Positions 174 to 19,083 are shown, counted from the stretch's first letter. The stretch is 64,000 bases of DNA from Candidatus Eiseniibacteriota bacterium (GCA_963823555.1 CAWGMA010000003.1:416001-480000), one strand, 5' to 3'. Made by a program: numbers and translations. The notes: generated by a model not told the origin, from the sequence alone.

Positions 174-341
174 GCCTAACGCGCGGCTAGGCGGCTCCGC
201 TCACTCGCTGCGCTCGCATCGCTTCGCCCAACCCGGCGCTTCCGTCACGGCGCTTGCGGCCGGGGGCGATGTTGAGGTTCGACCTTTCTGCGGCAAGCGC
301 CGCGCCGGGCGCCGGGTTCGCCAGCCGCGGTATCGTTTGGC
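174..341 (+). repeat. attC-like site 1
   Basis: gcctaac...cgccagccgcggtatc GTTTGGC; arms aacccggcgc/gcgccgggtt and cggcgcttgc/gcaagcgccg. Confidence 0.92.
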
Positions 342-362
342 GCCACGCTACATCTAGCTCAT

Positions 363-1001
363 ATGAGAGACTTCATGCAGCATCTTTGGATGTCCATGTG
401 GGTCGCATGCTACCTTGCATGCGTCGTTGGCTGCCATCGGGACGATCACGAAGTGTCCGCCATCTCGTTGAGAATCGAGCGCCGCCTCGGACTCAAGTTG
501 CCCTGCGAAATCCATAGCGCCCAAGAGTACGATGATGGGGGGTCAATTGGCGGGACAATCCTGGACGCTACCGGGCAACAACTCCAGTTCTGGTGGGATG
601 GCGGCATGCGCCTTCGTCCTGAGGATGTTAGCCACTTAGGCGATCGATTCGGTACTACAGATCCCGTAACCTCAGGTCCACGTTTGGTGTACTTGGGCGC
701 CCATCATCGAGAAGACCGCCAGGCGCGCGCACTTCTAGTTGGCAGCGCGGAGGAAAGTGCCTTCGTTGATGTGCTGCGTCTGGCTGTGTCGAAACACTTC
801 CCATTAGCCACTCAGGACAGCATTGCGGCCATCTGGATGGACCACCGCCCACTTTCCGGCAGAACCGCTTTGGCAGATCATCTTTCCCGTTCAGAGACTC
901 ATGAACTCGAAGCCATTCGCCTTGCGGTCCTTCTGAGAATGCAGCGTTCGGGCACCACAATCGATCCAATGTCGTGCCCGTCGGCGACGGTTCCCCAATG
1001 A
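363..1001 (+). CDS. Cassette 1: hypothetical exported protein or lipoprotein
   Basis: 212 aa ORF filling the cassette; hydrophobic N-terminus ending VVGC. Confidence 0.65.
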   Translation: MRDFMQHLWMSMWVACYLACVVGCHRDDHEVSAISLRIERRLGLKLPCEIHSAQEYDDGGSIGGTILDATGQQLQFWWDGGMRLRPEDVSHLGDRFGTTDPVTSGPRLVYLGAHHREDRQARALLVGSAEESAFVDVLRLAVSKHFPLATQDSIAAIWMDHRPLSGRTALADHLSRSETHELEAIRLAVLLRMQRSGTTIDPMSCPSATVPQ

Positions 1002-1021
1002 TAGAACAAGTTACGCGTGGC

Positions 1022-1180
1022 GCCAAACACGCGGCCTGGCGGCTCCGCTCGCTACGCTCGCTTCGCCTAACCCGGCGCTTTCCGTCACGGCGCTTGCAGT
1101 GACGGGCCGCGCTGGAGTCCATCTTGCTGCGGCAAGCGCCGTGCCGGGCGCCGGGTTCGCCAGCCGCGGTATCGTTAGCC
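1022..1180 (+). repeat. attC-like site 2
   Basis: gccaaac...GTTAGCC, same repeat family. Confidence 0.92.
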
Positions 1181-1202
1181 GCCCGCCCGGGGAAGCACCT
1201 TG

Positions 1203-1756
1203 ATGAAGTTCGGCTTGGCCTCGTCGCCCTCATTCGCCGCACTGCACCTGGTGTTGACCATTGCGCATCGGGCCCAGCGGTTGGCTACAGCCAGGAGCCA
1301 GGCGACGCAACCTACGTATTCGTTGCGCGCGCCAGCGGTTGCTATCGTCTCGAAGTGCTCGGCCGTTCAAGAGTCCTCCCCCGCGGGGCGCCGCCGGGGT
1401 TCCCCCAGGCGTCACTTCCTCGGGTGTTTCGCTTGCTCCCACAGCGAGATCAGCGTCGCATCGTTGACTTCGAGGGCATCGGCTCGCGATCATCGACCCG
1501 CTCTGACGCACTCGGAGCATGGCAAGTAGCGCCTCTACCATTCCCGCCCAATTCATCATCGTGGAGCCATTCTGGTTGGGAACCCTTCGCTGAGGGCGAC
1601 AGCATCAAGGTCACATGGGTGTGGGGCTACGAAGCCAGCGTGCTCCTCCTCGGTGTAGCTCCGGATACTCTCCACGGCGTGCTAGAACGGCGCGCCGACA
1701 TTGGTGGACCACAGAGCATCGAAAGAGTCATCGCCATTCGCATGAAATGCCAGTGA
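1203..1756 (+). CDS. Cassette 2: hypothetical protein; start uncertain, possible 5' frameshift
   Basis: Long frame ends at 1756 just before the next attC, but the ATG at 1203 is in another frame. Confidence 0.4.
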
Positions 1757-1772
1757 TGGTGTTCCACAGGGC

Positions 1773-1937
1773 GGCTAACGCGCGGCTAGGCGGCTCCGCT
1801 CGCTCGCTCCGCTCGCATCGCTACGCCCAACCCGCCGTCCGTCACGGCGCTTGCGATCGGAGACGGGTTGAGGTTCGCTCTTGCTGCGGCAAGCGCCGCG
1901 CCGGCCGCCGGGTTCGCCAGGCCGCGAAACGTTATAC
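1773..1937 (+). repeat. attC-like site 3
   Basis: ggctaac...GTTATAC. Confidence 0.92.
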
Positions 1938-1966
1938 GCCCGCACGCTAACCACCGGGAGGTGGTG

Positions 1967-2862
1967 ATGATCAGACATCTCTCCTTGTTGGGATGCATCC
2001 TGCTCTCGGTCCTTCCAGTGGCAGCGGCTGTAGTGCCGACCAATGCCTTCGCAGACGGCACCTGGCAATTCCTAAGTTCGTTTCTCTGTAATGCCGACGA
2101 CATCGCAATTGACTCGCAACACAACGTCTACGTCCTAGACATGGGCGAGTACCCTACGATAAAGGTCTTCAATTTCCAGGGCGACCTCTTGCGTGAAGAA
2201 TGGGGCTTCGCCTATGCAAGGGCCATCGCTATCGATGACGATGACTTTCTCTATGTCTTGAACTACCTTCACGAGGGCTACTCCCGGCGAGGTTGGGTTG
2301 AAACGGTACGACCTGAACTTCCAACCGCATGGAGGCTGGGACTATGCCAGTAGCGATCTCGAGATGGGCACAGCAATCGACGTACACGGTGGGATTGCCT
2401 ATATAGCCACGGTGCAATAGTCTACTCAAGTTTTCGACCAGCGGGGTACTGCTCGATACCTTCGCCTGGGGCTGGTGGCGGGTCGCGGTCGCAATCGACG
2501 GAAGCGTATGGGTCGCGCAGTACTACGGAGGCTTGGTGCGACACTACTCCGCCGACGGCGACATCCTCCACGAGTGGCGCACGATTCTTCCAGGGGAGCA
2601 ATACAGTGCCCCGAACGACATCGCAGTCGACTCGCGGCAGCGCGTCATCGTTGCAGATTTGGAGGCAATGCTGGTGAAGGTCTTTCGCGCGGATGGCATT
2701 CTCGATAGCACGATTGAGCTCTGGCCCTTTTCTATCGCTCTGGATGGCGACAACATCCTCCATGTCGGTGCGTCGGAGCCAATGTACCTTATGAAGTTTG
2801 TATACGTCCCAGTTTCGGTGGATCAGTCATCGTGGGGCAGGATCAAGGCCGCATTCAAGTAG
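1967..2862 (+). pseudogene. Cassette 3: secreted NHL-repeat beta-propeller with C-terminal SWGRIK tail; two apparent frameshifts (~2303, ~2410)
   Basis: Signal peptide; repeats DIAIDSQHNVYVLD, AIAIDDDDFLYV, VAIDGSVWVA and PNDIAVDSRQRVIVAD; coding sense switches across three frames; RBS GGAGGT. Confidence 0.75.
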
Positions 2863-2912
2863 ATGACAACGCGAGCGAAAGAACAGCCCGATTCTGGTCC
2901 CTTCGTGCGGGC

Positions 2913-3077
2913 GCATAACGCGCGGCTGGGCGGCTCCGCTCGCTCGCTGCGCTCGCATCGCTTCGCCCAACCCGCCGTCCGTCACGGCGCTTGCCGTGAC
3001 GGGCCGCGCTGGAGGTCACCTTGCTCCGGCAAGCGCCGTGCCGTCCGCCGGGTTCGCCAGCCACGGTATCGTTATGC
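2913..3077 (+). repeat. attC-like site 4
   Basis: gcataac...GTTATGC. Confidence 0.92.
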
Positions 3078-3159
3078 GTCCGGCACCTCCGCCGACAGGG
3101 GTCTTTGAACTACCGGCTTTGTCGAGTACTCTCTTCGCCCGGAGGCCAGCCAGGAATCC

Positions 3160-3504
3160 ATGCCACCCATCGCCAACGCGGACCGGGCCGTCATCGAGCC
3201 GCAAAAGCTCAGGGGCTATCTCCTCTCCCGAACTCACGCCGTCGGGCGCTTCAAAGCCATCTTCTTTCGGTCGCTCGGCTATTCCGCCTCTCGCTGGCAA
3301 CGTCTCGAGGCCGACCTCCGGGCTCACCTCTTGGCCAATGACCCCGCCTTCGAGGAGGAGTCTCCCTACGGCCGCAAGTACCTCATTCGTGGTACCCTTC
3401 GTGGACCCAATGGCCGCCAGGCGGAGGTCGTCGCCATCTGGATCCTCCTCGCCGGGGACACCATCCCTCGCTTCGTAACCGCCTATCCGGGGGAACGGAA
3501 ATGA
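3160..3504 (+). CDS. Cassette 4: DUF6883-like putative toxin
   Basis: KLRGYLL..H..GRFKA.FF..LGY and W....G.TIPRFVTAYP resemble DUF6883; overlaps next gene (ATGA). Confidence 0.7.
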   Translation: MPPIANADRAVIEPQKLRGYLLSRTHAVGRFKAIFFRSLGYSASRWQRLEADLRAHLLANDPAFEEESPYGRKYLIRGTLRGPNGRQAEVVAIWILLAGDTIPRFVTAYPGERK

Positions 3505-3734
3505 GCTTTCACACCCTCGATACCGTCGTCCTCAACAAGGACCTGCCCGAGCACAGCCTGAGGGCTGGCGATCTCGGTGCCGTTGTCCAGGTCTACGAAC
3601 CTGACGGCCTCGAGGTCGAATTCGTCACCGCCTCTGGGAAGACCGAAGCCGTGGTCACACTTCATGCCTCCGATGTCCGCCACGTCGAGGACAGCGACAT
3701 CATCGCCGTTCGACGCCTTAAGCGCTCTGCATAG
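3501..3734 (+). CDS. Cassette 4: DUF4926 family protein (putative antitoxin)
   Basis: LDTVVLNKDLPEHSLRAGDLGAVVQVY..EVEFV..G.T.AV pattern. Confidence 0.8.
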   Translation: MSFHTLDTVVLNKDLPEHSLRAGDLGAVVQVYEPDGLEVEFVTASGKTEAVVTLHASDVRHVEDSDIIAVRRLKRSA

Positions 3735-3808
3735 CGTCAAGCTCCCCGCGAGCCGCGCTCTCCGCTTCTCAACAGAGATCATCGGGCGACATTGAAGGGG
3801 TGCCGGAC

Positions 3809-3968
3809 GCATAACACGCGGCCTGGCGGCTCCGCTCGCTGCGCTTGCTCCGCCCAACCCGGCGCTTTCCGTCACGGCGCTTGCCGTCAGGGGCTGGGTT
3901 GGGATTCAGTCTTTCTGCGGCAAGCGCCGCGCCGGCCACCGGGTTCGCCAGCCGCGGTATCGTTTTGC
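3809..3968 (+). repeat. attC-like site 5
   Basis: gcataac...GTTTTGC. Confidence 0.92.
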
Positions 3969-4015
3969 GTCAACCCCTGCCACCAGCTGCACCACAACCG
4001 GGGCCCGCGGCTCTC

Positions 4016-4052
4016 TTGATGTGGCGAGGCGATCTCGCTACAATCGCGCCAC
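4016..4052 (+). promoter_or_regulatory. Sigma70-like promoter of the antitoxin/Fic cassette with overlapping inverted repeat
   Basis: TTGATG-N17-TACAAT (4016-4044); gtggcg...cgccac inverted repeat. Confidence 0.6.
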
Positions 4053-4064
4053 GAGGTGAATCCA

Positions 4065-4259
4065 ATGGAACTGTCTCTCAAGCTCACACAGGCTCAGGAG
4101 CGCCAGCTGGCGGATATCGCCGCTCGCCTTCACGTCTCACCATCCGACCTCGCCGCCGCTGCGATCCGCGACCTCCTATCACACCCCGACGACGCTTTCA
4201 CCGAGGCTGCCGAGCGCGTGCTGGCCAAGAATCTCGAGCTCTATAGACGGTTGGCGTAA
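4065..4259 (+). CDS. Cassette 5: small antitoxin paired with Fic/Doc toxin
   Basis: 64 aa, ends AAERVLAKNLELYRRLA as seen in Doc-associated antitoxins; RBS GAGGT. Confidence 0.75.
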   Translation: MELSLKLTQAQERQLADIAARLHVSPSDLAAAAIRDLLSHPDDAFTEAAERVLAKNLELYRRLA

Positions 4260-4658
4260 GTGCGCTACCTCACGCTGGCCGAAGTCCTTGAACTCCACCA
4301 GTTGCTCGTTCAACGCACTGGCGGCGCTGCTGGCGTTCGGGACTTCGGGGCACTCGAGTCAGCCATCGCCCAGGCGCGGCTGTCTTTCCAAGGTGCCGAT
4401 TTCTACCCCGAGATCGAGGACAAGGCGGCAGCTCTCGGCTACTTCATCATCAGCGGGCACCCCTTTGTTGACGGCAACAAGAGGGTCGGGCATGCCGCCA
4501 TGGAGGTTCTGCTGCTTCTCAACAACAGGCGTTTGGATGCGTCCGTCGACGACAGCGAGCACATCGTTCTCGAGATCGCTAACGGCCGCTGCTCACGCGA
4601 TCAGCTCGCGCATTGGCTTCGCGCACACACCTCGCCTATCTCGACCGAATCTCCCTGA
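4260..4658 (+). CDS. doc: Cassette 5: Fic/Doc (death-on-curing) family toxin
   Basis: HPFVDGNKR Fic motif; GVRDFGALESA. Confidence 0.9.
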   Translation: MRYLTLAEVLELHQLLVQRTGGAAGVRDFGALESAIAQARLSFQGADFYPEIEDKAAALGYFIISGHPFVDGNKRVGHAAMEVLLLLNNRRLDASVDDSEHIVLEIANGRCSRDQLAHWLRAHTSPISTESP

Positions 4659-4709
4659 AGCGCAGGCCTTCGCCTCTCAGCCTCTCTGTGTCTTCCTCCC
4701 GGGGTTGGC

Positions 4710-4884
4710 GCAAAACACGTGGCCTGCTGGCTCCCCGTGCGCCGGCTGCGCCGGCCACGGGGTCGCGCAACCCGCCGCTGTCCGTCACGGCGCTTGCTTG
4801 CTTGGTTGCTGCTGCCTTCTCCGCCTCCGTCGCGGCAAGCGCCGCGCCGGGGCGGCGGGTTCAGCAGCCGCGGTATCGTTAGGC
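4710..4884 (+). repeat. attC-like site 6 (most divergent copy)
   Basis: gcaaaac...GTTAGGC; retains ccgtcacggcgcttgc/gcaagcgccg and agccgcggtatc. Confidence 0.85.
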
Positions 4885-4929
4885 GCACGCCGGACGCCGA
4901 TTCTCCTGGCGATCCGAGGAGGAAGAGAG

Positions 4930-6255
4930 ATGCTGTTGTTTGGCAAAGGCGCGGTTTTGCTTGGACTGGCAGCCTTGCTCCAAGTCTCGCCGGGCGAGGC
5001 GCGCACATTGATCGTCCCTGACCAGTACCCGACCATCCAGCAGGCGGTAAATGCGAGCGCCCAGGGCGATACGGTGCTCGTTCGACCGGGGACATACTTC
5101 GGCACGGTCGTGCTCGACGAACGCGGACTCACTCTCACGAGTGAACAGGGTGCGGAGGCGACCGTCCTCGATGGCCAGCAGTCCGGCCCCGTCCTGGCGT
5201 TCTCCTATGCCGGAGTTACCATCGAGGGATTCACCATCCGTAACGCTGGCGACAACGGCATTCGCGGGATCAACTCGACGGTCACCGTCCGCGACTGCGC
5301 CATCATCGACAATCAGGGGGCCGGAAACGATGGTGGTGGCGTTATGTTTCGCGCCTGCATCATCACATTCGTGAACAACCGAGTCATTGGCAACGTAGCC
5401 ATGCTCGATGGTGGCGGCTTGTATCTGTATGCCTGTCAGGGCCTCATCGATGGTTGCATCATCGCAGACAATCGAGCGAGTTCCGGCGGCGGCGTCATTT
5501 TCAACGTCTCCACATTTCCATATCTACATCTGCGGAACACCGTGATCGCGCGGAACACCGCCATGTTGTATGGCGGGGGTGTGCTAGTCAACAGCGGCGC
5601 GCGGCCTCATCTGTGGAACGCGACCATAGTGGGGAATTCTGCCGAGCATTCCGGCGGTGGCATATGGCTCAACGCTACCTCTGCTCCTTATGTCTGGCTG
5701 ACCCTCGTGGCCATAAACGCGGCACCGGTGGGCGGTGGCGTTCACGGATTCCAGCCTGGCGCGAATCCTACCTACTATTGCAGCGACCTTTGGGGGAACG
5801 CTGGCGGCAATTTCGGCGGCTACTTACAGAACCCGATCGGCATTAATGGCAACATCTCACTGGACCCGCAGTTCTGCGATGCGGACGCCGGGGACTACCG
5901 GGTTCTACCGTCTTCGCCTTGCCTGCCGGAGAATCACCCGGGCGGCTGCGGCCCAATCGGTGCCCTCGGTGCTTGCCCTGCAAGCGCTCTCGAACTCCCT
6001 GCCTCTGAACAGATGCTCCATCTGACCGTCTCGCCGAATCCGAGTCGGGCGTCGGTGACAATCGCGACGCCAGCCAGATTCCTCCCGGCGATGGCCGAGC
6101 TGTACGATGCCAGCGGCCGGCACCACGGACGACGGCTGCTACGTTCGGAGCATGAGGAATGGGTACTCGATACCACTGCCCCGGGAGGCGTGTACTTTCT
6201 TGTGGTCCAGCACGGCGCCGCAACCTCGACCGTCAAGGTTGTCGTGGTACGGTGA
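4930..6255 (+). CDS. Cassette 6: secreted right-handed beta-helix (pectin-lyase fold, GGG repeats) with C-terminal T9SS/FlgD-like Ig domain
   Basis: Signal peptide; VPDQYPTIQQAV..GDTVLVRPGTY; N.A..GGG repeats; C-terminal SPNP..YDASGR..GVYFL. Confidence 0.85.
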   Translation: MLLFGKGAVLLGLAALLQVSPGEARTLIVPDQYPTIQQAVNASAQGDTVLVRPGTYFGTVVLDERGLTLTSEQGAEATVLDGQQSGPVLAFSYAGVTIEGFTIRNAGDNGIRGINSTVTVRDCAIIDNQGAGNDGGGVMFRACIITFVNNRVIGNVAMLDGGGLYLYACQGLIDGCIIADNRASSGGGVIFNVSTFPYLHLRNTVIARNTAMLYGGGVLVNSGARPHLWNATIVGNSAEHSGGGIWLNATSAPYVWLTLVAINAAPVGGGVHGFQPGANPTYYCSDLWGNAGGNFGGYLQNPIGINGNISLDPQFCDADAGDYRVLPSSPCLPENHPGGCGPIGALGACPASALELPASEQMLHLTVSPNPSRASVTIATPARFLPAMAELYDASGRHHGRRLLRSEHEEWVLDTTAPGGVYFLVVQHGAATSTVKVVVVR

Positions 6256-6297
6256 TCGCTTCGTTGCTTTCGGCGTGTCTTTGAGTTGCCCGCGTGC

Positions 6298-6456
6298 GCC
6301 TAACACGCGGCCTGGCGGCTCCGCTCGCTGCGCTCGCTTCGCCCAACCCGGCGCTCTCCGTCACGGCGCTTGCCGTGACGGGCCGTGCTGGAGGCCACCT
6401 TGCTGCGGCAAGCGCCGTGCCGGGCGCCGGGTTCGCCAGTCGCGGTATCGTTATAC
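6298..6456 (+). repeat. attC-like site 7
   Basis: gcctaac...GTTATAC. Confidence 0.92.
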
Positions 6457-6516
6457 GGCAGACGAGTGCCCTGTCGATCTCCTAACGACCCGCTGTCGGA
6501 GACAAGGCGGACGTAC

Positions 6517-6545
6517 TTGCCAAAGCCCTGATGCTCCGCTAGTCT
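6517..6545 (+). promoter_or_regulatory. Promoter of cassette 7 TA pair (probably leaderless transcript)
   Basis: TTGCCA-N17-TAGTCT, 6 nt before the GTG at 6552. Confidence 0.55.
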
Positions 6546-6551
6546 CGCTGC

Positions 6552-6833
6552 GTGGAGCTTCGGTTCTACATCGACCCAGAAACCGGCGAGCCGCATATCA
6601 ACGGTCACGGTGTTTCGGACATTGAGGTGTCCGACGTGATGGCCCGTCCACTCGAGGATCGACCCGGCCGCGAGGGGGCTCGAGTCACCCTCGGTCAGAC
6701 TCGCGGCGGTCGCTACCTTCGGGTCATCTATGTCCCGGACCCCGTTCCCGGCTCGGTGTTCGTGATCACTGCCTACGAGGTTGGGCCAAAGGTGCGGCAC
6801 GCGTTGCGGCGGCGCCTCAAGAAGAGACAATGA
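6552..6833 (+). CDS. Cassette 7: BrnT/DUF4258-like (RelE-fold) putative toxin
   Basis: HI..HGVS..EV...LGQT.GGRYLRVIY..VFVITAY pattern. Confidence 0.75.
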   Translation: MELRFYIDPETGEPHINGHGVSDIEVSDVMARPLEDRPGREGARVTLGQTRGGRYLRVIYVPDPVPGSVFVITAYEVGPKVRHALRRRLKKRQ

Positions 6834-7039
6834 GCCAAACACAAGACAGCAGGTTCCCCCCGGGCTGGGATGAGGAGCGGGTACGCCGAGTGCTGGAGCA
6901 TTACGCTTCGCAGACGGATGAAGAAGCCCTTGCTGAGGACGAAGCGGCCTACGAGGAAACTACCCACACGACGATCAGTATCCCCGTCGAACTGGTGCCC
7001 GAGGTCCGCGAGCTTCTTGCCAAGCGAAAGCTCGCCTAG
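6830..7039 (+). CDS. Cassette 7: small acidic putative antitoxin
   Basis: FPPGWDEERVRRVLEHY..QT.EEA.AEDEAA; ATGA overlap with toxin. Confidence 0.7.
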   Translation: MSQTQDSRFPPGWDEERVRRVLEHYASQTDEEALAEDEAAYEETTHTTISIPVELVPEVRELLAKRKLA

Positions 7040-7144
7040 CGCCTCAGGTGCCCTCAGCGCGGCATCACCACAGCCGAGCCACTTCGTGCCTCGAGTGACA
7101 CGCGGCGCGCAACCGAGCCTGCGCTGTCCCATTCCACGCCGCTC

Positions 7145-7310
7145 GCATAACACGCGGCTGGGCGGCTCCGCTCGCTCGCTACGCTCGCATCGCTCCGCCC
7201 AACCCGGTCGTCCGTCACGGCGCTTGCCGTGACGGGCCGCGCTGGAGGCCACCTTGCTGCGGCAAGCGCCGTGCCGGGCGCCGGGTTCGCCAGCCGCGGT
7301 ATCGTTATAC
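7145..7310 (+). repeat. attC-like site 8
   Basis: gcataac...GTTATAC. Confidence 0.92.
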
Positions 7311-7367
7311 GGCAGACGAGTGCCATAGCCAGCCCCCGAAGCGCCAATCCAGCCGCTAGCTGAACTA

Positions 7368-7403
7368 ATAACGCTTGCCGTTATGTCCAGCGATTGCTAC
7401 CCT
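7368..7403 (+). promoter_or_regulatory. higBA promoter with operator palindrome
   Basis: ATAACG-N5-CGTTAT (7368-7384) overlapping TTGCCG-N17-TACCCT, with extended TG. Confidence 0.65.
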
Positions 7404-7410
7404 CGGTGGC

Positions 7411-7692
7411 GTGATTCGCAGCTTTGGCGACCGCGAGACCGAGAGGGTCTTCCGTGGAGGGCATTCGCGCAGGCTCCCGACTGACTTGCAGCGCATTGCC
7501 CAGCGAAAGCTCGCTATGCTGGACGCTGCCCAGAACCTGCATGACCTTCGGGTGCCCCCAGGCAATCGCTTGGAGCGGCTCTCCGGAGATCGCGCGGGCC
7601 AGTATAGTATTCGAATCAATGACCAGTGGCGCATCTGCTTCGTCTGGGCAGAGGGAGATGCGCACGACGTTGAAATCGTCGACTACCACTGA
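7411..7692 (+). CDS. higB: Cassette 8: HigB (RelE family) toxin
   Basis: MIRSF.D.ETE; DLRVPPGNRLERLSGDRAGQYSIRINDQWRICF..VEIVDYH. Confidence 0.93.
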   Translation: MIRSFGDRETERVFRGGHSRRLPTDLQRIAQRKLAMLDAAQNLHDLRVPPGNRLERLSGDRAGQYSIRINDQWRICFVWAEGDAHDVEIVDYH

Positions 7693-7704
7693 GAAGCGTA
7701 AGCA

Positions 7705-8010
7705 ATGCCTAAGAAGAACCGACCACCAGTTCACCCCGGTGAGATCTTGCTGGAGGAGTTCCTCAATCCAATGGGGATCAGCCAGTACCGGCTTGCGCGG
7801 GACATCAGTGTCCCTCCCCGCCGAATCAACGAGATCGTGCATGGCAAGCGAGCGGTCACTGCGGATACGGCGCTTCGGCTGTCACGGTACTTCGGTACCT
7901 CGGATCGGTTCTGGCTCAATCTGCAGGTGAGATACGATCTGGAGGTTGAGCGTGCCCGTCTTCGGGGTCGGCTCACTCGGGAAGTGACTGTCCTGCGGAA
8001 GGCGGGATAG
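7705..8010 (+). CDS. higA: Cassette 8: HigA antitoxin
   Basis: PVHPGEILLEEFL.PMGISQYRLA..RINEIVHGKRAVTADTALRL..FWLNLQ..YDL. Confidence 0.93.
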   Translation: MPKKNRPPVHPGEILLEEFLNPMGISQYRLARDISVPPRRINEIVHGKRAVTADTALRLSRYFGTSDRFWLNLQVRYDLEVERARLRGRLTREVTVLRKAG

Positions 8011-8045
8011 CACAGGGCGCTGCGCGGGCTCTTGGTTCGTCTGCC

Positions 8046-8063
8046 GCATAAGGGCAGTTAGCC
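8046..8063 (+). repeat. Collapsed attC scar (R'' and R' boxes only)
   Basis: gcataa-gggca-GTTAGCC; left side complements the start of cassette 8, right side complements the end of cassette 9. Confidence 0.8.
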
Positions 8064-8099
8064 GAACCCCACGGGTCCCGAGCACATGAGGCTACGTCC

Positions 8100-8723
8100 A
8101 TGCTGTGTAGATGCCCTCTTCCGCACTTGCTCGTGGTCGCCATCGCTATTGGCTTCACCGCGGCCATGGACGCCGAGGCAGTGCCGACGATCGTGATGGA
8201 CGTGCAGGGTGAACTCGTCTTCTGCCCTGCAGTAGACCCCTGTGTCGCACCGAATCAGCCGCGGGTGAATATCCCGGCGATTGAGCAGTGGTTCTATGCC
8301 TACGTCTTCGCGCGCAACTACGACGATGTCGCCGCGATCCAGTGGGCCTTTGACTGGCCTCCGACCTTGGTCGTCGGCGGTGGCTTCTGGCTGTGCCCTC
8401 CCGGCTCCATCGGGATTCCCGAGCAGCCACCGTATGGTCCCGGCCCGATCGCCGGCAGCTGCGGTGCCATCTTCAATTGCGTCTCCGGCGGGGCTTCGAT
8501 GTTGATCGGGTGGGTTGGCGTGCGCCCCGGAACTGGATGCCTCGAGATCATTGAATCCGGGTTTCCAAATGGCACGCATATTGTCACATGCTCCGGGGCG
8601 ATCGTACCCGTCCCACCTGCCAACCGAGGCAAGATCTGCGTCGGTGAGGGCGGCATTGACGCCTGCAAGTCTCTGGTTCCTGTCACGCCAGCAACCTGGG
8701 GTGCAATCAAGAACACCTATTGA
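8100..8723 (+). CDS. Cassette 9: secreted Cys-rich protein with C-terminal TWGAIK tail
   Basis: Signal peptide; ARNYD..IQWAFDW; GCLEIIES..P.GTH; PANR..ICVG.GG..C; paralog of 18427-19065. Confidence 0.8.
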   Translation: MLCRCPLPHLLVVAIAIGFTAAMDAEAVPTIVMDVQGELVFCPAVDPCVAPNQPRVNIPAIEQWFYAYVFARNYDDVAAIQWAFDWPPTLVVGGGFWLCPPGSIGIPEQPPYGPGPIAGSCGAIFNCVSGGASMLIGWVGVRPGTGCLEIIESGFPNGTHIVTCSGAIVPVPPANRGKICVGEGGIDACKSLVPVTPATWGAIKNTY

Positions 8724-8759
8724 TCTGTCGTGAGAGCGCACTATGGTGGGGTGGGGTTC

Positions 8760-8917: not shown

Positions 8918-8958
8918 GCCCTACGCCATTGGTCTTAAGAAGAACCGGCCTGGAGTCC

Positions 8959-9565
8959 ATGAAGCCCCTTTGCCTTACGTTAGCCTTCGCACTCTGCCTC
9001 TGCACATTCCCAACCGCAGTCCCGGGGCAGATTCTCTCTGGCTTTCCCCTGCATGCGATTCAGCTCGGCGCGGGCGAGTGCGACATCACTGACCCCTGCG
9101 CCTTTGGCATCAGCACAACGGTTCTTCCTGGATTCCTCACGGTCATCTACATCTGGACTCGCAACACCGGTCCGATCGCTGGAATCCAAACCGCTTTCGA
9201 TTGGGACCCCGGCACCTGGACCCTCGCCTACAGCGAGTGGGACTGCCAGCAAGGCCAACTCACAACGCATGTTCCTTCGGGACCGGGGCCCGTTGATGGC
9301 ACCATCTCGACCGTGTTCGACTGCGCGACCTACGGTGCTAGCTCGTGGATCATCGGAAAGCTCTACATGATCCCCTCATCTGGCTGCTTGCGACAGGTTC
9401 AATCCGCCCTGGCCTTCGGGACCTGTGTTTGCTTGTCCTGAGGGTGCATGGCCGATCTACCCAGAGGCCTGCGGTACCATTTGCGTCAACGAGCCTGGCA
9501 TGATCGCCTGCTGGCCTGGACGAGGAACCGGCGAGCGTGAGGGCCACGAGGCGCAGTACTGCCAG
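8959..9565 (+). pseudogene. Cassette 10: secreted Cys-rich paralog, frameshifted at ~9428 (3' end approximate)
   Basis: FPLHA..DPC..IQTAFDW..GCL; family homology continues in a second frame (CGTICVNEPGMIAC). Confidence 0.65.
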
Positions 9566-9585
9566 TGGTTTGCGTGCGTAGGGCG

Positions 9586-9745
9586 TCATAACACGCGGCC
9601 TGGCGGCTCCGCTCGCTGCGCTCGCTCCGCTGCAACCCGGCGCTTTCCGTCACGGCGCTTGCCGTGACGGGCTGCGCTGGAGTACCCCTTGCTGCGGCAA
9701 GCGCCGCGCCGGGCGCCGGGTTCGCCAGCCGCGGAGACGTCATAC
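9586..9745 (+). repeat. attC-like site 10 (GTC core)
   Basis: tcataac...GTCATAC. Confidence 0.88.
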
Positions 9746-9773
9746 GCCCTTGGCCGTGGGTCGTAGGAGAAAG

Positions 9774-10190
9774 TCACGCTGGGCGATCACCGAGGTACTT
9801 GTCCGCAAACTCCCTCGGGCGCTGGACGCTTATCCCTCGATATCCGCTGACCTTTAAGAGATGCCTGTCGCCACTGATAACGCGCCTCGCTCGGCCGGCC
9901 ACGGCGCAGGCCAGAAACTTGTCGTCGGCCCTGTCTTCGCACACAGGCAGCGGGAGAGCTGGGGCGACAACGATCGTGGCCTTTGAGATGAGCAGGACCA
10001 GTATTGGCGTGACATCAACTCCAGGGAAACGCTGGGCAATCCTCTGCGCCGTGCCCCAGTACTCATCGACAATCTCTGGCGACACAACCACATCCAGCTC
10101 ATCGTCTCTCCACGCCAAGACGATCCGGTACGGTGCGCCACCGAAGAAGATCCCCGAAATCAGCACGTTGGTGTCGACCACGATCCTCAC
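9774..10190 (-). CDS. Cassette 11: PIN-domain (VapC-like) toxin
   Basis: RIVVDTNVLISG..CEDRADDKFLACA..VISGDRHLL. Confidence 0.9.
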   Translation of the reverse strand: MRIVVDTNVLISGIFFGGAPYRIVLAWRDDELDVVVSPEIVDEYWGTAQRIAQRFPGVDVTPILVLLISKATIVVAPALPLPVCEDRADDKFLACAVAGRARRVISGDRHLLKVSGYRGISVQRPREFADKYLGDRPA

Positions 10191-10450
10191 TGCCGGCCTC
10201 GGGTCGCGGCTACCGCTCGCGTGATGTCCGAGCGCTTCACCTTTGCGCGGCGCGCGGCCTTGCGCGTCTCGGCCACCAAGTCATCAAACTCAGCGACCGA
10301 GGGCGGAGCGATGACCTTGAGGATTACGACATCCCCATTGCCGATCACGACGAACTGGGCGCCGGGCTGCAACCCGAGTCGTTTGCGGATATTCTCGGGA
10401 ATGACGACCTGTCCCTTGGCAGACATTTTGGTTGTAGCGAGCGTAGGCAT
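10187..10450 (-). CDS. Cassette 11: AbrB/MazE-family antitoxin
   Basis: TKMSAKGQVVIPENIRKRLGL.PG. Confidence 0.9.
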   Translation of the reverse strand: MPTLATTKMSAKGQVVIPENIRKRLGLQPGAQFVVIGNGDVVILKVIAPPSVAEFDDLVAETRKAARRAKVKRSDITRAVAATRGRQ

Positions 10451-10464
10451 CTGGTTCCTCCCCT

Positions 10465-10488
10465 GGTAGTCTTACCAGTAAGACTACC
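10465..10488. promoter_or_regulatory. Operator palindrome upstream of the AbrB-PIN operon
   Basis: Perfect 11-bp inverted repeat GGTAGTCTTAC-ca-GTAAGACTACC. Confidence 0.7.
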
Positions 10489-10584
10489 CCAAGCACCGAG
10501 GCCCCGCAAGGGGCGGTTTTCTGTGACCGGAGTGCGGGTGCCCGTGAGCAAAGGAACCCGATGTGCTACGGGTTGGCCAAGGGC

Positions 10585-10598
10585 GCATAACGCGCGGC
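10585..10598 (+). repeat. Left stub of attC-like site 11 (interrupted by IS21)
   Basis: gcataacgcgcggc followed directly by IS terminus TGTCAAC. Confidence 0.85.
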
Positions 10599-10712
10599 TG
10601 TCAACGAACATTGAAAACTGGTCCAAGGTGAACGGCGAAAAGTGGACCACCCCTGCTGAGGATCCGGGCTGATCACGGTAAGTTCTGACCTCCTTTCTGG
10701 TTCCGAGTCTGC

Positions 10713-11168
10713 TCAGGCCGGGGCGAGAGCAGGGGCCTGGGTCGTGGCCAGGGTGCGTTCCCGCAGCCGGTAGCTGTGTCCCTTGATCGATAACACATGG
10801 CTGTGATGGAGTCGCCGATCGAGGATGGCGGTGGCGATGGCGTGATCGCCGAAGACCTCTGGCCACTCGGTCACGGACTTGTTCGAGGTGAGGATCACAC
10901 TCGAGCGTTCGTAGCGGTAGGCGACGACCTGGAAGAGGTAGTTGGCTTCGGCACGCGAGAGCGGTAGGTACCCGACCTCATCGAGCACCTTGATCCGCCG
11001 CTCCTCCCGCGCCGCGATCTCTTCTTCGAGCAGCTGGTCGAGGAAAGCCGCATACCCGAGCTCGCTGTCTTCAGCACTCTTGAGCGCCTCAGGCAGGGTG
11101 TCCTTGACGCGCCACAGCCCGAGTCGATCGAGTTGCGTGACCAGGCGATCGTAGGTGGGCTGGCTCAT
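10713..11168 (-). pseudogene. istB: IstB ATPase with in-frame internal deletion (no Walker A)
   Basis: FLDQLLEEE..RRIK joined directly to VLDEVGYLP; TSN, ATAILDR..HH, G.SYRLR. Confidence 0.85.
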
Positions 11169-12276
11169 CGCACACCTCCGAGGACGGAGACATACTCCGC
11201 GATCGGGCGCTGCTCGACCTCGGCCGCGGCCCAGGGCACCACCGAGAGCAGGTGGACGCGACGGGTGACCGGTCGGCGTTTCGCTGCCCGTTCCTGCAGC
11301 CGTTCGAACCGGGGGCGTCGCAGGGCAGCCACATGCTCCTCGATGATCGAGCGCTCACCCTTGGCCACCTGGCGGTGTTCGGCTACACGCTCGGCTTGCG
11401 AGAAGATCTCGATCGCATCGCCCAGCGGATCGATCTTGACGACCACGCGAGAGCCGACTAGATGATGCGGAACCGAGTAACGTCCGGCATGGAAGCTCAC
11501 GGTGCAATCGCTCAGCACCCGTCGGGTCTCCGGCAACCGTGGATCAAAGCTGATCTCCGGCAGCGCCAGAAGTTCCGGTCGCTCCCGTTCCAGACGCGCC
11601 CAGGGCACTTCGCCCGTGGTGCCGTGAACGCGTCCGTTGCGGGCCCGATCGAGCGCGGTCACGGCATCTTGCAGTGCGTACAGGCCCGGGTACTGCTCTT
11701 CGAGCAGGCCGGCATCCTCGATATCCCGGTAGCTCCGTTCGGTCTTCCCCTTCCGTTCGGGGTGATACGGCCAGGCCGGGTCCGGCTCGCAGCCATAGTG
11801 TCGACAGACGTCCAGGAAGAAGGGCTGGAGCTCGAGCTGCGGGCGCGGCCGCAAGACCGCCGCCTTCGTGTTGTCGAACAACACTCGCGCCGGCACACCC
11901 CCGGCTGCGATGAACGCCCAGCGCAACGCCGCCAGGAGGGCGGGCAGATTGATGCTGCGCACGACGAGTGTCCACTGTGCCCGCGACCACCCGAGCAGAA
12001 AGCGGAAGAAGTGCACGCTGGTCTCGGGCTCGGCGCGGAGCAGACCACGTGCCGGTCCTTTCCAGTCGAACTGGCCTTCGAGTCCGGGCGCGGTCTCGAA
12101 CCGCACGCAGGCGCGCCGACGAGCGCGCTCCAGGCGCCGCCGCTCGCGCACCCAACACTTCACCCGTTCGTAATGCCCCTGGTAGCCCTCGCGCACAATC
12201 AGCGCATGGAGCACCGTCGCCGGTGCCGCCGGCCGTGCCGCCAGCAACTCTTCGAGACGACCTACGAACGGTTCGA
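11165..12276 (-). pseudogene. istA: IstA DDE transposase, 5'-truncated
   Basis: RFETAPGLEGQFDW, FDNTK, ERKGKTE, RVHGTT, YSVP; begins at LEPF, lacking the N-terminal HTH. Confidence 0.85.
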
Positions 12277-12316
12277 GCGCCGGCCGCCGGGTTCGCCAGC
12301 CGCGGTATCGTTATGT
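12277..12316 (+). repeat. Right arm of attC-like site 11
   Basis: gcgccggccgccgggttcgccagccgcggtatcGTTATGT. Confidence 0.85.
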
Positions 12317-12467
12317 GCACGGCCTCGGATCGCCTTGGTCTAGCTCTCAGCGTCGCCATGGAGCACCCTCGATGGCGATCTCGCGACGCCCCTTGTCCGG
12401 GCCATCGTGGCCGTCGAACGCACGTCCCCGGCTGGCATGATCGTGGCTGCGGTGCTACTCTCGTCCC

Positions 12468-12737
12468 ATGCCCGAACTGTCGCGGTTCTTTGGGATCATC
12501 GTCCGAATGTTCGCTGAGGCTGGAGAACCACATCACGCGGCTCATTTCCATGCCTACTACCAGGACCATATCGGCGTCTTCGGCATTGACCCCGTCGAGT
12601 TGCTCGCTGGCTCTTTCCCTCGCCGCCAGCAGCGGCTGGTTGAGGCATGGGCGGAGCTCCATCAGCAGGAGCTTCTTCAGGACTGGGAGCGCCTGCAGGC
12701 AGGCCAGCGGCCTTTGCCCATCGATCCACTTCGCTAA
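12468..12737 (+). CDS. Cassette 12: DUF4160 family protein (putative TA component)
   Basis: MPELSRFFGIIVRM..H..AHFHAYY..LVEAWAELHQQEL..W..PIDPL. Confidence 0.88.
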   Translation: MPELSRFFGIIVRMFAEAGEPHHAAHFHAYYQDHIGVFGIDPVELLAGSFPRRQQRLVEAWAELHQQELLQDWERLQAGQRPLPIDPLR

Positions 12738-12746
12738 CGAGGCCAT

Positions 12747-13043
12747 ATGAAGCACCCAATCGTCCGCGTCGAGTCCTTCGAGATCGTTGGGCCTTATACC
12801 CTGCGTGTCGCCTTCGACGATGGTTCTGCACAGGTCATTGATTTCCGCCCGGTCCTCTTCGGCGAGCTATTTGGACCGCTTCAGGACCTCACGCTGTTCA
12901 ATCGTGTTGGCATCGACCCCGAGGTTAGAACCCTCGTTTGGCCCAACGGCGCCGACTTCGACCCTGCTACACTTCACGGATGGCCGCAGCACGCTCGCGC
13001 CATGGAGCAACTGGCTCGTCGCTGGGAGCGCGGCGCTGCTTGA
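12747..13043 (+). CDS. Cassette 12: DUF2442 family protein (putative TA component)
   Basis: YTLRVAFDDG..FGPL.D..LF..TLVWPNGADFDP. Confidence 0.88.
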   Translation: MKHPIVRVESFEIVGPYTLRVAFDDGSAQVIDFRPVLFGELFGPLQDLTLFNRVGIDPEVRTLVWPNGADFDPATLHGWPQHARAMEQLARRWERGAA

Positions 13044-14059
<1,016 letters not shown>

Positions 14060-14117
14060 CCATCGCAGGCTGAGGCCTTCTCGTCCTGGGCTTCATCGCA
14101 GTTTCCCTTCGCTCCTC

Positions 14118-14277
14118 GCATAACACGCGGCCTGGCGGCTCCGCTCGCTGCGCTCGCTTCGCTGCAACCCGGCGCTCTCCGTCACGGCGCTTGCCGTGAC
14201 GGGCCGCGCTGGAGGCCCCCTTGCTGCGGCAAGCGCCGCGCCGGCCGCTGGGTTCTCCAGCCGCGGAAACGTTATGC
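14118..14277 (+). repeat. attC-like site 13
   Basis: gcataac...GTTATGC. Confidence 0.92.
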
Positions 14278-14311
14278 GCGCAGCAAGGACGCAGTCCGGA
14301 GGTGCATCCCA

Positions 14312-15691
14312 ATGAAAGCAGCGATCCCCCTCGTGGCTCTTGCCCTGCTCGTGGGTGCCAACCCCCTGAGCGCGGCGACCCTCGTCGTCCCTGACCAGTA
14401 CGCATCGATCGGTGCCGCCATCCTCGCGGCCACCAATGGCGACACAGTCTTCGTCCGTGCTGGGACCTATGTCGAGAATCTGAACTTCATGGGCAAGGGC
14501 ATCTCCCTGGTCAGCGAGGACGGACCGGTGGCCACCATCATTGATGGATCGAACCCATCGCACCCCGACTCGGGGAGCGTGCTCTTCATTCCGCCCGCGC
14601 CGACGCCAATCCTCGTGAGAGGTTTCACCATCACTGGGGGCAGCGGAACGCTCGATCAGAACATGTTCTCCAGAAGAGCCGGTGGCATCTATCTCCTGAC
14701 GGCTGGGGCTATCAAGGACAGCTGGATCACCGAGAATCACGCCGCTAGCATCACTGGAGTTGCGGGCGGGATCGAAGTGGCCGCCCAAGGCGTGACACTC
14801 CAGGGGAACCGCATCTACTCGAACACCGCGGGCTTGTCGTCCAGCGGTTCACGAGGCGGCGGGATCCTCATCAACGGATCCGACACAATCATCGAAGACA
14901 ATGTGGTGTTTGCCAATCAGGCTCTGGGGGAGCCAGGCACGGGTGGTGGTTGCTACGCGGACGGTATCACCACATTCCTTCATAACGTCTTTGCGTGCAA
15001 CCGAGGGTCGAACCGCGGAACTGCCATCAACGGCGCGTATCTCATCGAGAACTGCACGATTGTCGGAAACAGCGGCCTCCATCCCGCTTTCGATTCGGCG
15101 CTCGGCCGAGTCCAGACGGTCCGTCGTTCGAGCATCACCAGCAACGTGGGCCCGGGGATCGATGCTTGCAACCATCTCACGACTCCCTGCAACAACTTCT
15201 TCGATAACATTGGCGACGATCCAGCCTGCTATGACGCTGGCAACGGGAACATATCGGTCGAGCCTCTCTATGAGGAAACCCAGTGCGGCAGCACGTTCTG
15301 CCTCTTGCCGGAGTCACCTCTCCTGCCTGAGAACTCGCCACCTGGGTGCGGGCTCATCGGGGCGAGCGAGCAGTGCGTGTCAACGGCAATCGACGCGCCG
15401 ACAAGTCCCGATTACGCCTCTGGGCCGCTGGTTGCGCGACCGAATCCGTTCAACCCCGCGACTACCATTGCGTTCGTGCTCCCGGGTCGGCGCAGCCTCA
15501 CACTCGCCGTGTATGACACGTCCGGGCGTGCGGTGCGGATTCTCTTTGACGGTACCCTGCCGTCCGGGCCGCACGAGATCGTCTGGGACGGCCGTGACTC
15601 TCGCGGCACCTTGGTCGAGTCCGGGGCGTACATCGCAGTGCTGCAATCACCGGAGGCACGCTGGAGCCAGAAGCTGCTTCTCGTGAAATGA
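14312..15691 (+). CDS. Cassette 14: secreted beta-helix protein with C-terminal FlgD/T9SS-like Ig domain
   Basis: Signal peptide; VPDQYASIGAAI..GDTVFVRAGTYVEN; PNPFNPATTI..YDTSGR..WDGRD..SGAY. Confidence 0.88.
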   Translation: MKAAIPLVALALLVGANPLSAATLVVPDQYASIGAAILAATNGDTVFVRAGTYVENLNFMGKGISLVSEDGPVATIIDGSNPSHPDSGSVLFIPPAPTPILVRGFTITGGSGTLDQNMFSRRAGGIYLLTAGAIKDSWITENHAASITGVAGGIEVAAQGVTLQGNRIYSNTAGLSSSGSRGGGILINGSDTIIEDNVVFANQALGEPGTGGGCYADGITTFLHNVFACNRGSNRGTAINGAYLIENCTIVGNSGLHPAFDSALGRVQTVRRSSITSNVGPGIDACNHLTTPCNNFFDNIGDDPACYDAGNGNISVEPLYEETQCGSTFCLLPESPLLPENSPPGCGLIGASEQCVSTAIDAPTSPDYASGPLVARPNPFNPATTIAFVLPGRRSLTLAVYDTSGRAVRILFDGTLPSGPHEIVWDGRDSRGTLVESGAYIAVLQSPEARWSQKLLLVK

Positions 15692-15725
15692 GGGCGAGTG
15701 TCCAGTAGCCTATCTATGGCGGCGC

Positions 15726-15884
15726 GCACAACCCGCGTCCTGGTGGCTCCGCTCGCTGCGCTCGCTGCGTCCAACCCGGCGCTCTCCGTCACGGCGCTTG
15801 CCGTGACGGGCCGCGCTGGAGTCCTCCTTGCTGCGGCAAGCGCCGCGCCGGGCGCCGGGTTCGCCAGCCGCGGTATCGTTAAGC
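15726..15884 (+). repeat. attC-like site 14
   Basis: gcacaac...GTTAAGC. Confidence 0.9.
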
Positions 15885-16069
15885 GCACCTCGCTCCCGGG
15901 GTCACGCGTGCAGGAGGGGTCCGAGCCCCCTTTCACTGACAGCTTGGTGGAGGGGACCCGTTTGCGTACACTGGAGTCGGGCTCGGAGACGCCCGAGCCC
16001 CCTATGGCGGGCGAGCGGTTGGAACTGATGGCTGCCACTCCTGGCACCGGTGGGCCGCGGAGGTAGAAG

Positions 16070-16327
16070 CTGCGACGGCGAGAGTGGCCCCTCTGGTGTG
16101 CCTGGGAACTCGAACTGAGCCCGCACCTGGTCAAGCGCATGATTGATCGCCGGTTCTCCGAGATCGATCTCAGGACGATGCTTGAGCGCGCATCAGGCTA
16201 TGAGAGAGACGTGGTTGTCGGGCGGTGGGTCATCGAAACGCGGTTACGGAGACGGCGATGGCAAGTCATCGTCGAGCCTGATATTGCTACGGAGAGGCTC
16301 GTTGTCGTCACGGCCTATCCACTCTGA
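16070..16327 (+). CDS. Cassette 15: DUF4258-like putative toxin (probable CTG start)
   Basis: Open frame WP.W..WELELSPHL.KRM.DR.F..W.VIVEPD..LVVVTAYP; GGAGGT 5 nt before CTG at 16070. Confidence 0.7.
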   Translation: MRRREWPLWCAWELELSPHLVKRMIDRRFSEIDLRTMLERASGYERDVVVGRWVIETRLRRRRWQVIVEPDIATERLVVVTAYPL

Positions 16328-16338
16328 GAAAGAGCGCA

Positions 16339-16608
16339 ATGCATGAGCCATACTTGGAAGTGACCTTTCGTCACGGTCGCCCGCTGGCGGCCTATCTGTA
16401 CCTGCCACGACGACCGGGGCAACGCAGCTTTCGAAGTCGACCTGTGGACCCCGGCATGGTTATCGACTTCAGCCGCGGTGGTCACCCCATCGGCATCGAG
16501 ATAACCGCACCAGATAGAGTCTCGCTTGCGGCAATCAACCGCGTCCTCCGTTCCCTTGGCTGCGCCCCCGTCAAGAAGGCCGATCTTGCGCCGCTGCGCG
16601 CTGCCTAG
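16339..16608 (+). CDS. Cassette 15: DUF2283-like putative antitoxin
   Basis: AAYLYL...G.VIDF...G.PIGIEI pattern. Confidence 0.72.
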   Translation: MHEPYLEVTFRHGRPLAAYLYLPRRPGQRSFRSRPVDPGMVIDFSRGGHPIGIEITAPDRVSLAAINRVLRSLGCAPVKKADLAPLRAA

Positions 16609-16692
16609 GCAGGTGTCACACCGAGTCCGGTCCGGCAAGCGAATACGACGACGGTGACAGCCAACCTCGAATATGGCCGCCATGCGAGGTGC

Positions 16693-16859
16693 GCTTAACG
16701 CGCGGCTAGGCGGCTCCGCTCGCTCGCTGCGCTCGCATCGCTTCGCCCAACCCGGTCGTCCGTCACGGCGCTTGCGGTCGGGGGCGGGGTTGAGGTTCGA
16801 TCTTGCTGCGGCAAGCGCCGTGCCGGGCGCCGGGTTCGCCAGCCGCGGTATCGTCATAC
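16693..16859 (+). repeat. attC-like site 15 (terminal; GTC core)
   Basis: gcttaac...GTCATAC; no further copy found downstream. Confidence 0.9.
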
Positions 16860-16917
16860 GCGCGGCCGCAGCACTTGGGGTGTGGCAAGCTTCGCTCACC
16901 GGAAGGTGGTGGATGCC

Positions 16918-19065: not shown

Positions 19066-19083
19066 GCTCTGGTCGGAGTCCAG

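Follow-up and report, generated by a model that had tools for sequence, protein, structure and literature searches.

Integron integrases (IntI) are tyrosine recombinases that, in the standing model, gained single-strand recombination through an added helix, I2. Direct proof of this model is lacking because deletion of I2 kills IntI1 (PMC7790495; papers are cited by PMC number). In the Vibrio cholerae integrase, VchIntIA, eight residues grip extra-helical bases (PMC3053210), and the lengths of attC sites are quoted as 57-141 bp (PMC12901181). An 'Integron-like' subgroup of tyrosine recombinases in which the insertion is not fully conserved has been described (Smyshlyaev et al. 2021, PMC8138268), and 50 recombinases without I2 were found near attC sites, with fewer than three sites beside the four closest (Cury 2016, PMC4889954). 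Integrons are reported to be very rare in Firmicutes, and one complete integron is named in Bacteroidetes (IntegronFinder 2.0, PMC9024848). The literature searched, which left out most subscription papers, held no description of an I2-less integron class. Here we describe a cassette array at the start of a 64,000-nucleotide stretch of the genome of a Candidatus Eiseniibacteriota bacterium (GCA_963823555.1, here G000). This stretch, the window, is CAWGMA010000003.1:416001-480000 (G000:C3:416001-480000), and positions are counted from its first base unless a contig is named. The array is divided by long attC-like sites and headed, upstream of the window, by an attI-like site and a tyrosine recombinase without I2. 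From the sequence we judge it probable that this chromosomal array is an integron-like platform run by the adjoining I2-less recombinase, whose activity we infer.

An earlier note on this DNA had listed 14 intact copies of a 158-175 bp repeat bounded by xxxxAAC and GTT or GTC, and all 14 are in place on the + strand, at 174-341, 1022-1180, 1773-1937, 2913-3077, 3809-3968, 4710-4884, 6298-6456, 7145-7310, 8760-8917, 9586-9745, 13133-13300, 14118-14277, 15726-15884 and 16693-16859. Each starts with xxxxAAC and ends in GTT (12 copies) or GTC (2 copies). The split copy and the collapsed copy that it reported are likewise present. The split site consists of a left stub at 10585-10598 and a right stub at ~12277-12316, with a remnant of an IS21-family element between them and its middle deleted; the collapsed site occupies 8046-8063. 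The sites are indeed longer than usual, as had been noted (158-175 bp versus the quoted range), and differ in geometry as well as in length. The whole array extends 4.8 kb upstream of window base 1, where 7 of its 21 intact sites lie, and comprises 23 cassettes, with the split and the collapsed site added to the 21. Pairwise identity among the 21 sites averages 0.82 (range 0.62-1.0).

The recombinase gene lies upstream of the window at C3:409234-410850 on the - strand, divergent from the array, and encodes a DUF1802-like tail. Its start is 326 bp upstream of the first cassette, which begins at C3:411176. The attI-like site at C3:411164-411182 reads CGCCAAT-GGGCA-GTT and has what appears to be a simple form, an L box, a 5-nt spacer and GTT, beside the recombinase gene. 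No sigma-70-type promoter or terminator was found in the 1 kb around attI. The earlier note had suggested looking upstream of base 1 for a tyrosine recombinase with the IntI-specific I2 and for an attI; the attI-like site and a divergent tyrosine recombinase are there, and the recombinase is without I2.

The recombinase (P0001) matches PF00589 at 140.7 bits and PF13495 (SAM_4) at 56.7 bits, and its catalytic residues R139, H235, R238, H261 and Y270 are invariant in 54 aligned sequences. The IntI family model TIGR02249 matches it at positions 1-174 and 216-314 alone, with 211.6 bits against a cut-off of 265. The best Protein Data Bank (PDB) match is VchIntIA (2a3v), in two pieces, with 22 residues at the I2 segment versus 58 in IntI, so that the recombinase is 36 residues shorter there; the distance from GKG to RHS is 73-75, versus 110 in IntI. 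Four of the eight VchIntIA contacts with extra-helical bases (K209, Y210, W219 and P232) fall in the segment that does not align with the recombinase, and the others correspond to Q145->A, W157->R, H240->G and H241->H. The second PDB match is XerA (5hxy). Scores against the XerC, XerD and XerA profiles were 146.9, 140.8 and 174.5 bits, all below the respective cut-offs of 335, 330 and 220. In a FastTree phylogeny of 88 sequences and 276 columns, IntIs formed one clade (support 0.996), with the G000 recombinase and its two orthologs outside it and apart from the two Xer-like proteins of the genome (both on C1); deeper nodes were weakly supported.

The ends of the units mark them as cassettes. 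Within the same cassette, the four variable bases of R'' and R' were complementary at 3.42 of 4 positions over 19 pairs in G000 and at 3.95 over 20 pairs in a second genome, G001. Permuted pairings gave 2.64 and 2.69, and none of 20000 permutations was as high. The count excluded pairs spanning a gap of more than 1.7 kb or either of the split and collapsed sites, and five of the 19 G000 pairs are copies of one cassette. Circles integrated within GTT leave ends of this kind, and the complementary ends place the crossover within GTT. Five cassettes are common to the G000 and G001 arrays, at 66-93% identity and in a different order. One cassette without an open reading frame (ORF), here called X, is 340 bp long and present in five copies, at array positions 1, 2, 4, 5 and 8; the copies are at least 99.6% alike, one has an 87 bp deletion, and X is absent elsewhere in the G000 genome. 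At the head of the G001 array a different cassette is repeated. The repetition of cassettes near attI suggests recent replicative excision and re-insertion. The X copies (C3:411176-416341) have a common left end, but the site body is 158 bp long in the first copy and 165-168 bp in the rest, which suggests that sites have recombined or undergone conversion. At the collapsed site (8046-8063), R'' GCATAA runs directly into the final 8 bases of the platform's attI, as in sites of the delta-attI type. This 8-mer occurs 72 times on both strands of the G000 genome (0.008 per kb). The attI end of the collapsed site ties the distal array to the attI of the I2-less recombinase.

A profile built from 13 window copies was searched against the 4.62 Mb G000 genome. 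It returned 21 full-length matches at 98-156 bits, all on the + strand within C3:411510-432858, and outside this interval the genome gave matches at chance level (six, the best with 12.6 bits and E 0.26). The family is present in 2 of 206 genomes of the phylum and at 1 of 159 related loci, and no match was found in the viral contigs searched. These distributions bear on whether the repeats are elements of the repetitive extragenic palindrome (REP) or miniature inverted-repeat transposable element (MITE) kind, or terminators, gathered in an island without any recombination platform. The repeats are long, GC-rich, strongly folding and just downstream of genes, as such elements would be. However, 21 full copies lie on one strand of a single 21 kb stretch, and the long repeat is therefore not a REP or MITE. 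Moreover, what follows each GTT is part of the next cassette and is complementary to that cassette's own far end, and an attI-like site stands at the array head in three lineages. We regard this explanation as refuted. The earlier note had named a genome without IntI and with the repeat scattered throughout as the pattern that would speak against its reading; instead, an IntI is present and the 21 copies share one stretch.

Among 1965 homologs of the recombinase, close orthologs were those of G001 (67-68% identical) and of a locus designated L140 (70%); the other 118 listed were at most 47% identical. The layout of recombinase, attI-like site and long-site array is kept in all three. At L140 the attI-like site lies 259 bp upstream of the gene and is followed by five sites of 156-160 bp. 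In G001, contig C1 stops precisely at the GT of the attI-like site, 207 bp upstream of the match to the gene, and contig C4 opens inside the repeated first cassette and holds 27 near-full-length site matches in 38 kb. The flanks of the G001 unit map to G000 C3:152583 and 151293. These positions are 1.3 kb from each other and 260 kb away from the locus of the window, a finding that supports both the joining of C1 to C4 and a different chromosomal address of the unit. The recombinase and its array apparently move as one unit. A reading of the G001 contig break at attI as cassette turnover was rejected; the repeated first cassette explains the break. Weaker recombinase matches at 37-39% (on G001 C2, two in G023 and one in G014) had no evident array in the stretches read by eye.

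Both genomes also contain a canonical integron. In G000 an intact IntI (462.9 bits) is encoded at C3:15024-16110, 395 kb from the long array. Its integron (C3:7500-16110) is of the inverted type, with attI and the cassettes downstream of intI in the same direction, and has about five mixed sites of 60-131 bp. G001 has an intact IntI too (467.1 bits), with a longer canonical array that includes repeated short cassettes of ~315 bp. The two systems were compared using geometry rules of our own making, the canonical one derived from examples of attC sites. Strict canonical attC geometry had no match in the long arrays (21.7 kb in G000 and 39.4 kb in G001) and 3 and 18 matches in the IntI arrays. 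The long-site rule matched 18 and 22 times in the long arrays; its matches in the IntI arrays numbered 0 and 1, against a background of 0.1 and 0.06 per 10 kb. The long-family profile had no match in either IntI array. The attI types also differ, the I2-less type being, in G000, G001 and L140 alike, CGC-N4, a 5-nt spacer ending in CA, and GTT, and the IntI type GATAC or TATAC, 5 nt, and GTT. The two arrays keep separate site types in both genomes. The long sites have AAC/GTT cores, and some of their internal motifs recur at two IntI-array sites.

The earlier note had proposed the distal end of a chromosomal integron or a cluster of attC sites lacking integrases (CALIN). The window does contain the distal part of a chromosomal cassette array. 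With an I2-less recombinase and an attI-like site beside it, and IntI 395 kb away, the array fits neither the canonical integron nor the plain CALIN. The array could be a CALIN served in trans by the genome's IntI, with the I2-less recombinase a bystander or a degenerate former integrase. Each of the two whole genomes does have an intact IntI, CALINs have been proposed to arise when a distant IntI inserts cassettes off target (PMC8618304), I2 has been reported to be necessary (PMC7790495), the long sites keep AAC/GTT cores and have some internal motifs in common with IntI-array sites, and a locus near a true IntI (L123, below) has sites with non-canonical offsets. We nevertheless think service in trans rather unlikely. 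attI is recognised by its cognate integrase alone (PMC2095811) and the two attI types differ; the IntI arrays have no long-family site and the long arrays no strict canonical one; the recombinase stands beside attI in 3/3 orthologs and at a second chromosomal address; and it branches outside the IntI clade, so that it is not a recent IntI minus I2.

The predicted fold of the long sites also differs from that of canonical sites. The bottom strand of the site at 174-341 folds at -56.6 kcal/mol (z -3.9), and none of 200 shuffles was as good. A consensus fold was derived from 42 bottom strands (20/21 in G000, 17/26 in G001 and 5/5 in L140). It predicts that the R box is paired and that a bulge of 4 nt lies on the R' side, followed by a pair of short stems and then a three-way junction bearing a long hairpin and a variable side arm, and R'' (xxxxAAC) pairs with R' (GTTxxxx), with covariation. 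Two-sided changes were seen at 6 of 37 pairs over these sites from three lineages, above all 500 shuffles and slid controls, in sequences that are related and from which the structure itself was derived. G-T wobble cells numbered 64 on the bottom strand versus 12 on the top strand, and the bottom strand folded better than the top in 18/21 copies of G000 and 19/26 of G001. At 7-8 nt from AAC there is a 1-nt bulge, which varies in identity and which some copies lack; bulges are thus not wholly absent. The canonical combination of a spacer loop and an L box with an extra-helical base at position 9 after AAC was not found in the long sites.

A wider survey covered 79 genome loci and 80 metagenome loci (159 in all), in which 15 and 4 loci with self-repeats were read besides L140. 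At the attC-like repeats of five unrelated I2-less loci the right arm is longer, by +3 at L055, L069 and L106 and by +4 at L141 and L143, an offset that a script registered in 14 of the 18 copies. L055 belongs to Firmicutes, and L069 and L106 to Flavobacteriaceae; no IntI over the cut-off was found in the genomes of these three, which were searched as drafts. At L055:220-4728, in a Firmicutes metagenome-assembled genome, the attC-like sites beside the I2-less recombinase are ~280-385 bp long, far longer than those of the window.

These folds and offsets bear on how the recombinase might act. With no I2 to block the second exchange, the enzyme might recombine double-stranded sites in two ordinary exchanges, or might act together with a host partner such as XerC/D on extruded cruciforms. 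The likeness of the sites (mean 0.82) would permit sequence-specific binding, and 4/8 of the VchIntIA contacts with extra-helical bases lie in the missing segment (PMC3053210). Yet the two-sided changes keep long-range pairing and the wobbles favour one strand. The same arm asymmetry, needless for double-strand sites, is kept in unrelated sequences at other I2-less loci, and attI and the long sites have GTT alone in common around the crossover. A double-strand route is, in our view, very improbable.

Several observations weigh against a platform run by the I2-less recombinase. Both whole-searched genomes carry an intact IntI; deletion of I2 abolishes the function of IntI1, and I2 is thought to block a harmful second strand exchange (PMC7790495). 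Recombinases without I2 near attC sites have been judged not to be IntI (PMC4889954, Cury 2016). Since the three orthologs are related to one another, and G000 and L140 may have kept one address from an ancestor, they do not count as three separate events. No repeat array was seen at most of the 159 related loci, and the five supporting loci were chosen for having repeats. Offset geometry is not exclusive either: sites at an intermediate +2 offset (one +3) occur at L123, within 1.6-3 kb of a true IntI. An automated geometry survey of 128 loci of at least 3 kb (99 I2-less, 16 IntI and 13 unclassed) gave no discrimination and, beside the IntI controls, detected no canonical site; the design of its mirror control made that control lopsided, an earlier version was too noisy, and neither is used as support. 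Finally, no excision joint was listed in read contigs, which came from four runs of at most two samples with few-fold depth on unique parts and are uninformative. Some loose read-contig ends at site ends run into other cassette-like DNA, which other strains or species could explain. As a separate observation, the L123 array (L123:88-5991, Calditrichia) consists of 135-137 bp sites, mostly with a top-strand C bulge, and two genes lie between it and the true IntI.

On balance we retain the platform run by the adjoining I2-less recombinase. The layout, the GTT crossover zone, the absence of I2 with the catalytic residues kept, and the separation of the two systems can be read off the sequences themselves. 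From them we infer that the recombinase is active, that it is the enzyme acting on the long sites, and that its substrate is their folded bottom strand. In the mechanism that we hold most likely, the recombinase would bind attI as double-stranded DNA and a long site as its folded bottom strand, the cut would fall within GTT, and one strand would be exchanged; replication would then resolve the product. The 4-nt bulge beside the R box would orient the site, replacing the role of the extra-helical bases and I2, and the recombinase would capture and reshuffle cassettes. Exchange of one strand with replicative resolution would also explain the five copies of X near attI.

We also lean, more cautiously, towards a broader reading: a second, orthogonal integron class, in which an IntI-related recombinase that never had the I2 helix uses branched single-stranded sites oriented by a 4-nt bulge, alongside a canonical integron and without cassette exchange between them. 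If this is true, single-strand cassette capture predates or bypasses I2. Complete platforms would then be among the CALINs counted so far, or would have been missed in Bacteroidota, Bacillota and candidate phyla, and detection that requires I2 would undercount integrons. An orthogonal cassette recombinase would also be of use in engineering. The I2 model becomes directly testable with a natural enzyme that lacks I2 and has an attI and an array of its own, and G000, with both enzymes, both attI sites and both site types in one genome, is a good test bed.

The recombinases of G000 and G001 end in a C-terminal domain of 146 residues (52% alike), which at L140 follows in another frame. Seven of eight aligned members match DUF1802 (PF08819) weakly (best E 6.6e-7), the G000 copy with 18.5 bits against a cut-off of 25. 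The neighbours of the domain in the atlas are DUF365 and ASCH proteins, at 0.90-0.92; DUF365 and ASCH are PUA-like nucleic-acid-binding folds. A structural model from eight sequences had a predicted local distance difference test (pLDDT) score of 49, with a best fold match of Z 2.8 among 48,161 chains, and the full-length G001 recombinase predicted without an alignment had a pLDDT of 37. A PDB sequence search with the domain gave two chance-level matches. In all, the domain was found in only two proteins of 255-812 residues and in five short ones, and a literature search for DUF1802 yielded one unrelated paper. The DUF1802-like tail may help bind nucleic acid. The change of frame at L140, and the failure to find the tail in further relatives, make it probably an accessory part.

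A gene for a NusG-domain paralog neighbours 5/5 of the platforms examined (three I2-less and two IntI), upstream of the array and co-oriented with it. In G000 these genes lie at C3:408567-409322 (+ strand; I2-less platform) and C3:16371-16889, in G001 C1 at L041:11972-12483 and C1:1491312-1491518, and in L140 at 7804-8322; G001 has further NusG paralogs elsewhere. Speculatively, the paralog may be an antiterminator for cassette transcription. No paper linking an integron with NusG was found.

Cassettes 1-7 lie upstream of the window (C3:411176-415847). Those in the window are on the + strand except where stated, and each interval below ends with its intact site unless another ending is given. 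The window opens with the tail of the fifth copy of X (1-341), which begins 159 bases before base 1 and has a 168 bp site. The next two cassettes encode a 212-amino-acid ORF at 363-1001 without a Pfam match (335-1180) and short ORFs alone, such as 1490-1756, again without a Pfam match (1174-1937). An NHL-repeat-like gene follows in two frames, at 1967-2353 and 2533-2862, both pieces matching PF01436 weakly (1931-3077); the break in this gene (1967-2862) reflects either decay or a sequencing error. The cassette at 3071-3968 holds a DUF6883 and DUF4926 pair and has a 92.8% match in the G001 array, and that at 3962-4884, with a small gene, a Fic/Doc gene and a 175 bp variant site, has an 89.7% match there. 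Next come a 441-amino-acid beta-helix protein (gene 4930-6255; cassette 4878-6456), a DUF4258-like gene with a small partner (6450-7310; PF14076 below the cut-off) and a HigB/HigA-type pair (7304-8063), closed by the collapsed site. The cassette at 8057-8917 encodes a 207-amino-acid protein with a C-terminal TWG motif (8100-8723), and the R'' of its site is the exact complement of GTTAGCC at 8057. A 160-amino-acid ORF without a Pfam match (8959-9441) occupies the cassette at 8911-9745. The MazE-like and PIN pair at 9739-10598 is reverse-oriented (- strand) and ends in the left stub of its site, followed by the IS21-family remnant (10599-12276, - strand), a truncated istA and a shortened istB in place of a site's middle. 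The last four cassettes carry a DUF4160 and DUF2442 pair (12310-13300; 84% match in G001), a DUF433 and DUF5615 pair (13294-14277), a 459-amino-acid protein with a FlgD Ig-like domain (14271-15884) and a small gene with a DUF2283 gene (15878-16859), whose GTC is the distal array end. Eight two-gene cassettes in the window have toxin-antitoxin-type domains (HigB/HTH, Fic, PIN/MazE and DUF pairs); the DUF pairs we take to be toxin-antitoxin systems.

Past the last site, at 16882-19698, three genes come from the same secreted-protein families as cassette genes, with no sites between them, and are either resident sources of cassettes or old cassettes without their former sites. One of them, at 18427-19065, resembles the cassette gene at 8100-8723 (72% over 210 nt); the C-terminal TWG-type motif has 104 matches in the G000 genome. 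Rfam had no match in the array, its sole match in the window being a tRNA gene at 31435-31507. Tandem repeats of 15 bp lie within coding regions at 32495-32733 and 45354-45473, and at 59182-64000, on the - strand, are two tandem paralogous repeat-rich genes, ~80% alike, with many internal repeats of 45-49 nt.

Among described systems, the locus most resembles sedentary chromosomal integrons such as that of Vibrio cholerae (VchIntIA 2a3v, TIGR02249). Both have a divergent recombinase with SAM_4 and catalytic domains, an attI, a cassette array with homogeneous sites, a GTT crossover and many two-gene cassettes of the toxin-antitoxin type. Unlike those integrons, it has no I2, three-way-branched sites of 158-175 bp and a DUF1802-like C-terminal domain, and in place of their 5/6-nt spacer loop and extra-helical base at position 9 its sites have a predicted 4-nt bulge by the R box. 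Like CALINs (Cury et al. 2016, PMC4889954), it is a cluster of attC-like sites with no adjoining IntI (the nearest is 395 kb away) and an IntI elsewhere in the replicon; in contrast to them, it has its own attI-like site and an intact adjoining recombinase in three lineages, and its sites are unlike the IntI-array type. The recombinase is, like XerC, XerD and XerA, a simple tyrosine recombinase without I2, but it falls below all Xer cut-offs and groups with IntI-related SAM_4 proteins, in a genome that has two other Xer-like genes. The collapsed site, R'' plus the last 8 attI bases, is like the delta-attI cassettes of mobile integrons (PMC12901181), yet lies in the chromosomal array of a non-IntI platform. 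The excerpt of the 'Integron-like' subgroup account (PMC8138268) gives no cassette arrays or function for insertion-less members, and whereas the non-I2 cases closest to attC sites had fewer than three (PMC4889954), here there are at least 21. The array would work like a sedentary integron, yet its recombinase does not pass as an IntI and its sites fall outside canonical attC geometry. The locus adds the co-occurrence, in each of two genomes, of both systems with a site type for each; it also adds a DUF1802-like tail, a delta-attI-type site and a NusG paralog next to all five platforms examined.

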